DNA of 64,000 nt from a virus: the UHGV virus genome UHGV-0147904, one strand, 5' to 3'. The notes under the pieces were generated by a model. It was not told the origin of the DNA, ran no database searches, and worked only from the letters and a program-made list of their open reading frames with translations. The position numbers and the translations under genes are program-made. Positions 6,780-52,675 of the stretch are shown in pieces. Within the stretch, counting starts at the first letter, position 1. Each line of letters begins with the position of its first letter.

Positions 6780-6980
6780 TTATCTGCTGCCCGGCATTCT
6801 CTGTTTAAGCACAACCATTTCCTGACGGCATAACACAGCAATAGCGGTCCTGACTCCAATTTGCTTACCAAGCAGGTATTGCTTTACCTTGCGGCGACTC
6901 ACGCCATCAAGAAGCATCTTTAACGCTTCAAGGGACAATTTGTTGTATTTGCGTGCCATTAATCTACTCCGCAGAACCAT
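6780..6980 (-). CDS. small basic protein (66 aa)
   Basis: ORF immediately downstream of doc with a 17-nt overlap. Confidence 0.35.
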
Positions 6981-7344
6981 ACAATCTACGTAACGTGTCG
7001 GCGACAGAAGATACAGATATCTCGCCAGTCGCAGCGCCTACAGTAAGGTCTGCCAGTTCAGGTGAATCAAATACCTGCACCCCGTTACGGCGTAGAAATA
7101 GCAGCGCACTGTTTAGCGCGGTACGCTTATTGGCATCATTGAATATATGCCCTCTCGCTGTAGCCACCAGGTAGGTGGCGGAGACTTCGAAAAGGTCGGT
7201 GATCTCTTCGTAGGCAACTCTGGCCTGAACTCTCCCGATAATGGCCTCTGCCCTACCCGGATCTGACATGCCAGGCAGGCCGCCGTAGCGGCTTATATTC
7301 GCATCATGAAGCGCAACAAGTTCTTCCGGTGATATATGTCTCAT
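6964..7344 (-). CDS. doc: Doc toxin (Fic-fold kinase, 126 aa)
   Basis: 126-aa ORF with Fic motif [12 protein letters not shown]; overlaps phd stop. Confidence 0.95.
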
Positions 7345-7565
7345 TATCGGTTAACCAGTTCCTTGTTGGTGGAGTCCAGGGTGTCAAACAGGGATGCAAA
7401 TTCAGCATCCAGCGCCGCTTTTTTGTAGGCTTCGAAAGTAGCCTTGCTGACAATTACTGCTGGCTCACGGCCTCTGCGGGTGATTTCAACCTCTTCCCCG
7501 GCTTCAACATTGTTGAGCACTTCAGAAAGGTTGCCACGCGCGGTACGGAAGTTAATGGATTGCAT
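7344..7565 (-). CDS. phd: Phd antitoxin (73 aa from second Met)
   Basis: [49 protein letters not shown]...; precedes doc; track ORF extends to 7571. Confidence 0.9.
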
Positions 7566-48002: not shown

Positions 48003-48512
48003 ATGGGGCACAATAACACTAAGGGAAACCGTAAATTTATTAAGGGCCGCTATACTGCCAACGCGGCCAAAGGCGAACGACTGGTATCTTCTGAATTCCA
48101 GCTCACTTTTGCAGGCCATGAAGATATCAGCGTACTGGTTCGCACGTCGCAAATTCCTGAAATGACCCGCGAGGATGTGGAGGACTATGGTCCGAATGGT
48201 GTGAAGTTCAACCAGCACGGACCAATTCGAAACTCTGGGGAAATCCAGGTCCAGTGCGTGGAGACTATCGAAGGCGATATTCTTCAGTTCATCAAGGATC
48301 GCATTGCGGCGAAGGACTATGTTGATATCACGATGGCTGCTACCCCTGAATCCAAATCTTCCGGGGTTAACGCTGTGACAAAAGCTGCTACAACAATTGA
48401 AATGTTGGACTGCAAAATCTACAGTGATGCAATCGACTTTAGTACCGAAGATGTGACTGCCGCTGTGCGCCCGTCACTTCGTATCGTCTACAACTGGATT
48501 GAGTGGGATTAA
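48003..48512 (+). CDS. putative tail tube-like protein (169 aa)
   Basis: Loose resemblance to gp19-type tube proteins; followed by a strong terminator. Confidence 0.45.
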   Translation: MGHNNTKGNRKFIKGRYTANAAKGERLVSSEFQLTFAGHEDISVLVRTSQIPEMTREDVEDYGPNGVKFNQHGPIRNSGEIQVQCVETIEGDILQFIKDRIAAKDYVDITMAATPESKSSGVNAVTKAATTIEMLDCKIYSDAIDFSTEDVTAAVRPSLRIVYNWIEWD

Positions 48513-48532
48513 GAGTCATCCCTTGTATTTTA

Positions 48533-48558
48533 AAGCTCCTTCGGGAGCTTTTTTATTT
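48533..48558 (+). terminator. intrinsic terminator
   Basis: aaagctccttcgggagc followed by ttttttatt. Confidence 0.65.
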
Positions 48559-48628
48559 GGAGAGGAAAGGGTGCATTGAGGATACCTGACACACGAAGAG
48601 TGGCGAGGATCTCTCCCCGCCAGGTCTC

Positions 48629-48784
48629 TTACCTTTCAGATTCGTAGGCTGTGAAGACAGTGACCTCCGTCTGGCCGGTTCGGATTCGTACCTCGCAGAG
48701 GTCTTTCCTCGTTACCAGTGCCGTCACAATGACGGTTAAACAGATGACGATCAGAGCGATTAACATCGCTTTTTGCTGCTTCAT
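48629..48784 (-). CDS. hok: Hok/Gef-family type I toxin (51 aa)
   Basis: MKQQKAMLIALIVICLTVIVTALVTRKDLCEVRIRTGQTEVTVFTAYESER, near-identical in pattern to chromosomal Gef/HokC; below track cutoff. Confidence 0.75.
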   Translation of the reverse strand: MKQQKAMLIALIVICLTVIVTALVTRKDLCEVRIRTGQTEVTVFTAYESER

Positions 48785-48842
48785 AGCCTGCTTCTCCTTG
48801 ACCTTTTGGTCGGTAAGAGGCTAATCTACGTATGCTAAGCAT
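48636..48842 (-). CDS. mok-like overlapping reading frame (68 aa)
   Basis: Track ORF covering hok in another frame, as mok does in hok/sok loci. Confidence 0.35.
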   Translation of the reverse strand: MLSIRRLASYRPKGQGEAGYEAAKSDVNRSDRHLFNRHCDGTGNEERPLRGTNPNRPDGGHCLHSLRI

Positions 48843-48965
48843 AGATATGGCCTCAGATTAATGTTAAGCGTCTTGCAGGACGCGTAATGTTATCTGGGGC
48901 TTTCTTCTATCTGCTTTTCGGGTAATGCCTGAAGCAGATAGCCTCAAGCACCCGCAACGATTGTA

Positions 48966-49292
48966 TCAATGTCTGGCTTTTTTTCTATAGAAATCACCTG
49001 GAAGGGTGAATATCCACATCAGAAGAAATGTTGCAGCAAACATGATCCCTAATGGCCAGACCGCGCCAAAGAAAATCCATACTAAGATCTCCTCTGCTCG
49101 TTCTTTGCGGTCGATATCGACAAGCATTTTTCGGCTGATCATGTATACACAGAAGCCAATACAAACATATCCTGCAAAAGCGATCGCTAACTGTAAAAAA
49201 TCAGATTGCATCTCCGACCTCAAACTGAAAACGCCAGGTGACTCCAGATTAGAGCAATCTATCACCCCCTGAATCCTGCCGGTATACCCCAT
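48966..49292 (-). CDS. small membrane protein (108 aa; start may be internal)
   Basis: Two or three TM helices; downstream of repL. Confidence 0.4.
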   Translation of the reverse strand: MGYTGRIQGVIDCSNLESPGVFSLRSEMQSDFLQLAIAFAGYVCIGFCVYMISRKMLVDIDRKERAEEILVWIFFGAVWPLGIMFAATFLLMWIFTLPGDFYRKKARH

Positions 49293-50107
49293 TTTTCGTT
49301 ATCTTTATTTTTGGCTAAAATCGCATTAAGAGCTTCGTTTACCGTCATGCAATGCGGCAAATTATCGAAGTTTGATACCCCGCCAATATCAGGAGAACGC
49401 TTGTTCTTCAGGTAAGCATATTTCCGCGCTGCCGCCTCTACTTTCTGCTTGAACTCATGTTTTTGAGCGCGTTTTTTGGATAACCGCAGATTGTCAGCCT
49501 TTGCTTTTGCCTCAGCGATCCATGAAGTCAATTTTTTGAGTCTGCTCGTTCCGGCACCGCCGGAAACTGATCTTTTTGTTTTTTTAACTTGTGACTTCTT
49601 ATTCTTTATTGCCACGTCATCCTGACAGGGGGAGGGGGTATCATTTTGACATGGGGGTGTGGATAAAAAATTAAATAAAGCCAATGTCTTAGCGAGAACA
49701 GCTTTAACCTTGGTTGCCGCTGAAGAGATCTTTAATTTGCTTTCAATCAGCGCATTTTTGGCTTGTTGTGCGAAGGCCAAAAAGGATGGTGTAAACCGGT
49801 ACAGGTTAGCGCGACGTTCATGGTGATCGCCGATAACAATCTCTACAGACAGAATTCCTTTGTTTACAGCTTCACGGAATGCACGAACGACGGTTGATTG
49901 GCTATAACCAGTTTCTGCCGCGATCAGGCGGTGAGGCTTGTGAATGAAGTATTCACTGGTTGTTGCCGCTAGATTTGCACATTGCGACAGGATATGCCCG
50001 GCGCTACGGGATAGACCGGAGTGTGTTACAAAGCAGGCCAATTCATAGCCAGAAAAAGTAAAATCGCTCATCGTTATACAGCTCAGGAAAGTGACTTTAG
50101 CCAGCAT
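49262..50107 (-). CDS. repL: RepL lytic replication initiator (281 aa)
   Basis: 281-aa ORF downstream of kilA in the C1-controlled operon. Confidence 0.85.
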   Translation of the reverse strand: MLAKVTFLSCITMSDFTFSGYELACFVTHSGLSRSAGHILSQCANLAATTSEYFIHKPHRLIAAETGYSQSTVVRAFREAVNKGILSVEIVIGDHHERRANLYRFTPSFLAFAQQAKNALIESKLKISSAATKVKAVLAKTLALFNFLSTPPCQNDTPSPCQDDVAIKNKKSQVKKTKRSVSGGAGTSRLKKLTSWIAEAKAKADNLRLSKKRAQKHEFKQKVEAAARKYAYLKNKRSPDIGGVSNFDNLPHCMTVNEALNAILAKNKDNEKWGIPAGFRG

Positions 50108-51005: not shown

Positions 51006-51022
51006 GAAATTTATTAGAGCAA
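51006..51022. promoter_or_regulatory. C1 operator (Op53-type) upstream of kilA-repL
   Basis: AAATTTATTAGAGCAAA, 16/17. Confidence 0.7.
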
Positions 51023-51065
51023 ATTTTTCTGACTCGATCCAGATCGGGTTGGTCGATCTGCTCAG

Positions 51066-52362: not shown

Positions 52363-52414
52363 AGTTACGGCCTCACAATCAGGTTTAACAACCTGCTACC
52401 CGCTGCTAAACAGG

Positions 52415-52495
52415 TGGCAGGACGTGACGGGGTTAGCAGACTGGCGATTGTGAAACCAGCAGGCCGAAGCCTCCCCATCACGCCCCACCATAATT
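52415..52495 (-). ncRNA. c4: c4 antisense repressor RNA (approximate bounds)
   Basis: Minus-strand segment carries CACAATC and CTGCTAA, complementary to GATTGTG and TTAGCAG present in copies both upstream (about 52555-52580) and downstream (about 52374-52410). Confidence 0.5.
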
Positions 52496-52675
52496 TGGGC
52501 GTAACGCGGTTTTACGGACACAAAAATACCGCAATATAGGATATCTGCGGCTGTCCGCACAATCATTCAGGCTGCTAAACCCGGTCGCAGAATTTGCTAC
52601 GACGGCGGAACTATAAGCCTGAACGATTAAAAGGTCAATATGATGCGAAAAGATAGCATTCGTGACTTAAAAATA

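Follow-up and report, generated by a model that had tools for sequence, protein, structure and literature searches.

The closest tested relative of the locus described here is hokW-sokW of the Stx2 phages Sp5 and 933W. It is an experimentally verified type I toxin-antitoxin pair that aids phage release, not maintenance, and mutation of the sokW -10 box by Takada et al., giving a promoter-less construct, abolished the antitoxin effect (PMC8621323). In the R1 hok/sok system, the tac element, which pairs with fbi, folds into a local 5' hairpin once the 3' segment of the mRNA is lost. The mok and hok AUG codons of R1 lie at +116 and +174, that is, with an offset of 58 nt, and mutational data indicate that translation via the hok initiation region is needed, not the Mok protein (PMC9841398). 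The enrichment of Hok in prophages and large plasmids has already been surveyed (10.1101/2025.08.07.668861). With regard to P1-like phage-plasmids, a comparison of 77 genomes has described rlfA-rlfB-pmgF as one of eight hypervariable regions, without any mention of hok (PMC9603915).

The DNA analysed here, referred to as the window, is a stretch of 64,000 nucleotides from the virus genome UHGV-0147904. The window is a P1-like element, and in a hypervariable slot it carries what is, with a probability of about 0.85, an intact hok/mok/sok type I module of the lambdoid/Rac 'hokW/hokD-like' subgroup (Table 1). All parts of the module are present and intact, have homologs and are structurally conserved. 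The probability covers the identity of the module and its regulatory logic, while we infer the transcript ends, RNA processing, toxicity and role. The locus as such is already known, with identical sequences annotated in public records by the hundred, and both the family and its mechanism are textbook material.

Table 1. Coordinates in the window of the module, its predicted regulatory elements and the genes discussed with it
Feature	Position	Strand	Remarks
doc	6967-7344	-	tblastn 98.4% to P1 Doc, 126/126 residues; adjacent to phd
phd	7347-7565	-	tblastn 100% to P1 Phd, 73/73 residues
bplB	48003..48512	+	
Hairpin common to bplB and hok	48532..48551	both	canonical terminator on + strand; candidate hok mRNA 3' end on - strand
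Predicted full-length hok mRNA	48535..48953	-	3' end uncertain, probably at the hairpin shared with bplB
hok/sok and ORF81 cassette	48555..49247	both	693 bp; replaces P1 pmgF-rlfB-rlfA
fbi element	48571..48583	-	CCUCAAUGCACCC; 3' UTR, 46 nt beyond hok stop
hok toxin gene	48629..48784	-	51 aa, stop within coordinates; intact Hok/Gef ORF
mok reading frame	48636..48842	-	68 codons; ATG 58 nt upstream of that of hok, out of frame with hok
Long-range helix	48644..48791	-	hok start-codon region 48776-48791 with hok 3' coding end 48644-48660
Leader of hok mRNA, 5' (RF01794, labelled 'sok')	48779..48953	-	hok-sense orientation
hok Shine-Dalgarno	48794-48799	-	AAGGAG
Sok promoter	48798..48827	+	-35 TTGACC 48798-48803, 18-nt spacer, -10 TAATCT 48822-48827
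Sok antisense RNA	48834..48904	+	~71 nt; both ends placed by alignment to annotated sokW
mok Shine-Dalgarno	48851-48854	-	GAGG, 8 nt upstream of mok ATG
tac element	48942..48953	-	GGGUGCUUGAGG; 5' end
hok promoter	48960..48987	-	-35 TAGAAA, 16-nt spacer, extended -10 TGaTACAAT; -10 box 48960-48965
ORF81	48966..49211	-	predicted small membrane protein, 81 codons; second cassette gene
repL	49262..50107	-	

An earlier note on this DNA had proposed a 51-aa Hok/Gef toxin ORF with an overlapping mok-like frame and an upstream leader able to encode sok, all within positions 48629-48960. The translation of the toxin ORF is exactly as quoted there, and its product matches the Pfam family PF01848 (HOK_GEF) over profile positions 1-42 of 42 (E 2.4e-22, 78.7 bits, cut-off 22) as well as PHROG 251, 'MokW-like host killing' (E 4.9e-32). 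Its identity to K-12 HokD is 96% (over 50 residues), to HokC 82% and to R1 Hok 42%; HokD itself is toxic on expression (10.1101/2025.08.07.668861). No second Hok-like ORF was found in the window. The proposed interval holds the coding region and the leader, but it is too short at both ends, since it omits the hok promoter on one side and fbi on the other. The homology shared with all other hok loci covers 48569-48965, with the -10 box of the hok promoter at one end and a point just beyond fbi at the other.

The leader was identified by the Rfam search that had been suggested for elements of this type. The model RF01794 matches 175 nt of the hok strand over its full length (model positions 1-157 of 157) with 114.9 bits (gathering score 59) and an E value of 2e-25, and the hok AUG makes up the final three bases of the match. 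As a strand control, RF01794 was found to match the hokW strand in 933W and the hok strand in an R1-type plasmid locus, and the 933W GenBank record annotates sokW opposite the matching strand. The match thus marks the leader of the hok mRNA, which is the target of Sok, and not Sok itself; judged from the sequence, it is direct proof of the leader and speaks for Sok only by implication.

The hok promoter was called by a consensus promoter scan, with 9 of 12 consensus matches and a TG before the -10 box. It is a weak promoter, and 6 nt separate it from the +1 predicted at 48953. The 5' end at 48953 was placed by taking the Rfam model's first position together with the numbering of R1, and with this +1 the mok and hok AUG codons fall at +112 and +170. 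A further minus-strand site that resembles a promoter (48867..48838, TTAACA-18-TATGCT) was rejected as a chance match, given that its transcript would start downstream of the mok ATG. With regard to the 3' end, no terminator lies within the cassette itself, and the hairpin beside bplB, which appears when the full-length hok RNA is folded, was called by the terminator scan on the plus strand only and is followed by just three U on the hok strand, so that the 3' end of the mRNA is uncertain.

The mok-like frame proposed in the earlier note is real, and its geometry equals that of the annotated mok of the Rac prophage. Its conservation was assessed in a non-redundant set of 47 homologous loci, which come from Escherichia, Shigella, Kluyvera, Citrobacter, Photorhabdus, Pantoea and Erwinia and from viral contigs. 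Every one of them carries an ATG, with a GAGG before it, at the aligned mok position, and in none of the 47 is the frame closed before the hok ATG. The register of mok relative to hok varies: 39 loci have mok in frame with hok, in 6 loci mok ends at the hok ATG, and 2 loci, including the one in the window, have a +1 offset. The variable register and the constant openness show that the conserved feature is translation through the hok initiation region, not a Mok protein, and the R1 mutational data mentioned above agree with this. Relative to 933W, a 1-nt indel shifts the mok ATG of the window out of the hok frame. An in-frame Mok, that is, an N-terminally extended Hok like MokW of 933W, was considered and discarded, since, going upstream from 48784, the hok frame reaches a stop codon without passing an ATG, GTG or TTG.

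Opposite the leader, a promoter (TTGACC-18-TAATCT) and a predicted plus-strand RNA align with annotated sokW, in agreement with the claim that this region could encode the antisense RNA. In the alignment, the promoter directly precedes the start annotated for sokW in 933W, and the boxes of the R1-type locus fall in the same aligned columns. A stringent consensus promoter scan of the plus strand of the locus called nothing for Sok, as the -10 box matches the consensus at only three of six positions; the promoter is therefore assigned by aligning it with homologs that have been annotated or mutated. The sequence of primer YO-421 leads us to infer that TAATCT is the aligned counterpart of the sokW -10 box that Takada et al. 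mutated (PMC8621323). Among 14 near-identical copies of the locus, no variant was seen in the boxes of the Sok promoter, in the hok promoter or in tac.

The predicted Sok RNA folds into a 15-nt single-stranded 5' tail followed by a long hairpin (dG -29.1 kcal/mol, z -4.78). The tail is complementary to the region of the mok start codon and the 5' arm of the hairpin to the mok Shine-Dalgarno sequence. The tail segment shows the lowest conservation in the leader (0.67 identity in the closest subgroup) and differs from sokW at 6 of 17 positions, which fits the expectation for a specificity determinant and makes cross-repression between the two systems doubtful.

The earlier note had named the lack of an antisense promoter or of fold-back elements as evidence that would speak against its reading; the promoter is present at the annotated sokW promoter position, and the tac/fbi fold-back is both predicted in the fold and seen to co-vary across homologs. 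In the minimum-energy fold of the RNA from 48953 to 48530 (dG -165.7 kcal/mol), tac pairs with fbi. The full-length hok RNA has a z of -8.46, with none of 100 shuffled sequences equally stable. When the 3' end is removed, tac is predicted to refold into a local 5' hairpin, the behaviour described for R1. The tac/fbi helix comprises 12 pairs, and 91.8% of its cells are paired in the 47 loci, with U4-A replaced by C-G in 11 of them. In Escherichia-type loci, GGGUGC...GAGG pairs with CCUC...GCACCC, and in Photorhabdus-type loci GGGCGC...GAGA pairs with UCUC...GCGCCC. A second helix, which joins the hok start region to the 3' end of the coding sequence, has 14 pairs, with 92.5% of cells paired in the same loci and compensatory double changes at three pairs, among them U-A to C-G in 17 loci and G-C to A-U in 14.

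When the fold of the window was mapped onto the alignment of 47 loci, 87.6% of cells were paired, compared with 37-44% when the partners were slid by 1-3 columns; the structure was derived from the aligned window sequence itself, which inflates the percentage paired relative to the slid controls and affects the counts of double changes less. These counts amounted to 243 cells, against 120 +/- 12 in shuffles, and none of 500 shuffles was as high. Specific support from covariation falls on three helices, namely tac/fbi, the hairpin targeted by Sok and the long-range helix at the hok start.

The P1-like character of the window is apparent from a C4 antisense RNA with its targets at 52410-52616 and from 13 matches to the C1 operator, with 0.3 expected by chance. 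The module had been placed between the tail genes and repL and described as an addition to phd-doc, and both statements hold: bplB lies on one side and repL on the other, and phd and doc, both of full length, are neighbours on the minus strand (6967-7565). Homology to the reference P1 (NC_005856) runs up to 48554, where the T-run of the bplB terminator ends, and restarts at 49248, 14 nt past the repL stop. At this site the reference P1 has 1826 bp with pmgF, rlfB, rlfA and the C1 operator Orlf, and it lacks the hok/sok cassette. The P1 C1 operator Op55 is not retained at the cassette junction at up to three mismatches.

Besides hok/sok, the cassette carries ORF81, whose stop codon overlaps the TG of the extended -10 of hok. 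ORF81 is annotated as an 81-aa CDS in RefSeq relatives and matches PHROG 3772 (E 6e-54), a family given no function; Pfam, NCBIfam and PHROGs yielded no annotated function for it. A search of 5.8 billion proteins returned 19 homolog clusters, the named ones being from E. coli, E. albertii (a plasmid) and the phage SJ46.

As proposed in the earlier note, the locus was compared with P1-like relatives, and an identical cassette was found in many P1-like plasmids. In PLSDB, the repL segment occurs in 508 plasmids, of which about 229 carry the cassette, counted as plasmids that cover at least 80% of a 501-bp query spanning the end of bplB, hok and the end of ORF81, and 99 have the P1-type pmgF-rlfB-rlfA. 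Among P1-like plasmids, the cassette is thus the arrangement found most often at this site, and the query is 100% identical in at least 27 plasmids among the matches listed. The Hok ORF is intact in all 13 near-identical copies that were read; L088, the fourteenth, has a variant at 48771 and stands outside this count. The cassette is also present in six phage records, one of which bears the label MokW, and the identical copies in P1-like plasmids are annotated as hokD. In the records of two relatives that were inspected, the toxin is annotated ('hokD' or 'MokW') and mok and sok are absent from the annotation. A search of the literature on hok in P1-like elements found nothing explicit.

The mechanism that appears most likely is proposed by homology with R1 hok/sok and with hokW-sokW of Sp5. 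A weak constitutive promoter would produce a stable hok mRNA of about 400 nt. The pairing of tac with fbi and the engagement of the hok start in the long-range helix would keep this full-length RNA from being either translated or bound by Sok. Slow trimming from the 3' end would then strip fbi, which would allow the local 5' hairpin to form and expose the mok ribosome-binding site. Ribosomes translating mok would cross the hok Shine-Dalgarno sequence and start codon, leading to the coupled synthesis of the 51-aa membrane toxin. As long as the cell keeps the element, the short-lived Sok, transcribed from 48834 on the plus strand, would pair with the mok initiation region, block mok and hence hok, and trigger decay of the duplex, for which RNase III would be responsible. 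Upon loss of the plasmid prophage or a stop in sok transcription, Sok would decay first and the stored hok mRNA would kill the cell.

Post-segregational killing is the default role for a low-copy plasmid prophage. For the module in the window, this role, complementing phd-doc and possibly accompanied by assistance to lysis, is given slightly better than even odds. Two findings weigh against it: hokW-sokW acts in phage release, and the chromosomal hok loci tested in earlier work gave no such killing (cited in 10.1101/2025.08.07.668861). A mainly lytic function, which is not exclusive of plasmid maintenance, is the less likely alternative: induction would lower Sok, the stored hok mRNA would be translated, and damage to the inner membrane would speed or increase phage release. 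The relative hokW-sokW, with about 88% DNA identity, lends it weight, as sokW RNA was lost on mitomycin C induction and hokW-sokW doubled the release of Sp5 (PMC8621323), although this analogy comes from a lambdoid prophage and not from P1-like elements. The trigger could be transcription that reads through from kilA-repL, an operon repressed by C1, and that would run head-on into the Sok promoter. The local arrangement is in keeping with this, given that kilA, repL, ORF81 and hok all lie on the minus strand, that the cassette replaces rlfA/rlfB, which stand behind a C1 operator in P1, and that the nearest C1 operator match, at 51007-51023, is where P1 has OrepL/Op53. Between repL/ORF81 and hok there is only a weak 5-bp hairpin (49009-48994), yet even this hairpin may stop read-through. 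Furthermore, P1 has its own holin and endolysin, the reference P1 lyses without hok, and a contribution to lysis is compatible with post-segregational killing.

Two further readings appear improbable. Abortive infection, or the exclusion of unrelated lytic phages to the benefit of the lysogen population, would have the invader shut off host transcription, which would deplete Sok and free Hok. The effect described on T4 is, however, modest and was obtained at high copy number, nothing in the window ties the locus to defence genes, and the survey of Hok found no enrichment of hok beside defence systems (10.1101/2025.08.07.668861). The least probable reading is that of an inert, hitch-hiking relic, like several disrupted or non-killing chromosomal hok loci. 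In its favour, the same survey cites hokA, hokB and hokC of the chromosome as showing no post-segregational killing (10.1101/2025.08.07.668861), and four chromosomal homologs in our set (L014, L015, L030 and L042) have lost the 5' leader. Against this, the copy in the window has all regulatory elements present and conserved, disabling variants were seen in none of the 13 near-identical copies read, and the cassette predominates at its site in P1-like plasmids.

A more specific proposal, which we regard as quite unlikely, is that the hok/sok cassette of P1-like phage-plasmids is wired to the lytic switch. As the cassette lies directly downstream of the C1-repressed kilA-repL operon and is co-oriented with it, with only the weak hairpin between them, read-through could oppose Sok transcription. 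On induction, such read-through would yield 5'-extended hok RNAs unable to form the tac/fbi lock, and the co-transferred ORF81 might take part in this wiring. If true, a single module would have two uses, namely post-segregational killing while the element persists as a plasmid and, during the lytic cycle, a timer of lysis assisted by Hok. New biology is implied only if this link proves real, and the practical value of the locus is otherwise modest. Nonetheless, the reference P1 lacks a cassette that is the commonest natural arrangement at its site, and persistence models should add a type I module beside phd-doc; such models are relevant where P1-like phage-plasmids spread resistance. Additionally, the Rfam 'sok' model should be read as the hok leader in sense orientation.

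Under the preferred reading of an intact type I module, the locus can be set beside several known systems. Its similarity to hokW-sokW extends to about 88% DNA identity over 48569-48957, with the same order of elements, a 51-aa toxin and the same GC-rich insertion in the Sok hairpin, and sokW maps to 48834-48904. In 933W, the mok ATG lies 57 nt upstream of hok and in frame, whereas in the window the distance is 58 nt and the frame differs. The carriers also differ, a lambdoid prophage in one case and a plasmid prophage in the other. The nearest relative outside P1-like elements is hok/mok of the Rac prophage (MN652886), with 91% DNA identity over 48569-48965, hok and mok of the same lengths and the same 7-nt offset between their stop codons. 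The flanks are different, namely rem and irsA in Rac and bplB and ORF81/repL in the window.

R1 hok/sok (parB) shares with the window the Hok/Gef toxin, the RF01794 leader, the 58-nt mok offset, tac/fbi and the aligned Sok boxes, despite only 42% identity between the toxins. In the R1-type locus, the Sok stem is without the hairpin insertion of 16-18 nt, and the 5' leader contains additional sequence. R1 has its own terminator after fbi, as does Rac, unlike the copy in the window, which would borrow the bplB hairpin.

The name 'hokD' given by PGAP derives from the K-12 chromosomal hokD (relF), whose protein is 96% identical over 50 residues. However, the chromosomal hokD-like loci L015 and L042 have only the coding region and the 3' part in common with the window; they align from about position 203 of the 501-nt extract, that is, from about the hok start, and their 5' segment is unrelated, so that they lack the leader, mok and sok. 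Orthology with hokD/relF was therefore rejected, and since the copy in the window is a complete module, 'hokD' is a label of similarity. Finally, phd-doc of P1 is, like hok/sok, a toxin-antitoxin module carried by this plasmid prophage, the loss of which each of the two is expected to penalise. The two have no sequence relationship: phd-doc is a type II module with a protein antitoxin and a Fic-family kinase toxin that acts on translation, whereas hok/sok combines an RNA antitoxin with a membrane toxin.

In each of the three loci searched, namely the window and the homologous hok loci L002 and L006, the match to the Rfam family RF01794, named 'sok antitoxin', lies on the hok-sense strand, and in the window alignment the hok AUG forms the final aligned bases of the match. 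RF01794 is thus a model of the hok mRNA leader and not of the Sok RNA, and strand calls derived from it therefore place sok in the wrong orientation.

Features of the hok/sok module, its control loci and its P1-type surroundings
Feature	Location	Strand	Description
RF01794 match	window 48779-48953	-	hok-sense strand
RF01794 match	L002 1213-1387	-	hok-sense strand
RF01794 match	L006 232-403	+	hok-sense strand
Second promoter-like match, TTAACA-18-TATGCT	48838-48867	-	within hok leader
ORF81	48966-49211	-	81-aa predicted membrane protein; PHROG 3772, function unknown
Three tRNA genes	window 30244-32110	-	Rfam gathering hits
C4 antisense RNA and a1/b1 targets	window 52410-52616	-	Rfam gathering hits

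The mok start codon (window position 48842) is kept in every one of the 47 non-redundant hok loci aligned. The frame that it opens is in phase with hok in 39 of them, reaches a stop at the hok ATG in six and is offset by +1 in two, with 1-nt indels as the source of these differences (window hok, 48784). Because the mok frame shifts relative to hok in this manner, the annotated 'Mok proteins' are non-homologous products from locus to locus. The hok Tyr47 codon UAC and the following G, read within UACGAA (window 48643-48646, minus strand), are invariant in the same 47 loci. This context resembles the reported TadA editing context in which a Tyr-to-Cys recoding of hokB has been described, with a similar phenomenon for hokC, hokD and hokE (10.1101/2025.08.07.668861), and A-to-I recoding may be possible at the window hok Tyr47. 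With regard to two further loci, the Hok encoded on very short contigs of two non-enterobacterial assemblies, one of 275 bp from Acinetobacter idrijaensis and one of 431 bp from Xanthomonas pisi, is 100% identical to that of the window; these look like E. coli or P1-like contamination rather than true occurrences.

The module is accompanied by ORF81 within a 693-bp cassette, and the ORF81 stop codon and the TG of the extended -10 of hok overlap. Named ORF81 homologs are found in E. coli, on an E. albertii plasmid and in phage SJ46, the latter with 44% identity. Orlf (Op55), a C1 operator that in P1 borders the replaced segment on its repL side, has no counterpart at window 49242-49258 when up to three mismatches are allowed. 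The window holds 13 C1 operator matches, against 0.3 expected by chance, and the nearest lies at 51007-51023, where P1 has OrepL/Op53. The three tRNA genes, the C4 antisense RNA and the a1/b1 targets of this RNA are all standard for P1.

A transcript from the second promoter-like site would start 3' of the mok ATG, and the match at this site is probably due to chance. Relative to the Rfam consensus, the leader and the Sok hairpin tip carry an insertion of approximately 16-18 nt (48866-48883), a GC-rich hairpin GCGUCCUGCAAGACGC that lengthens the Sok stem-loop. The lambdoid/Rac group shares this insertion with the window, whereas it is missing from several other chromosomal loci of Escherichia (L020-L025) and from those of the Photorhabdus type.
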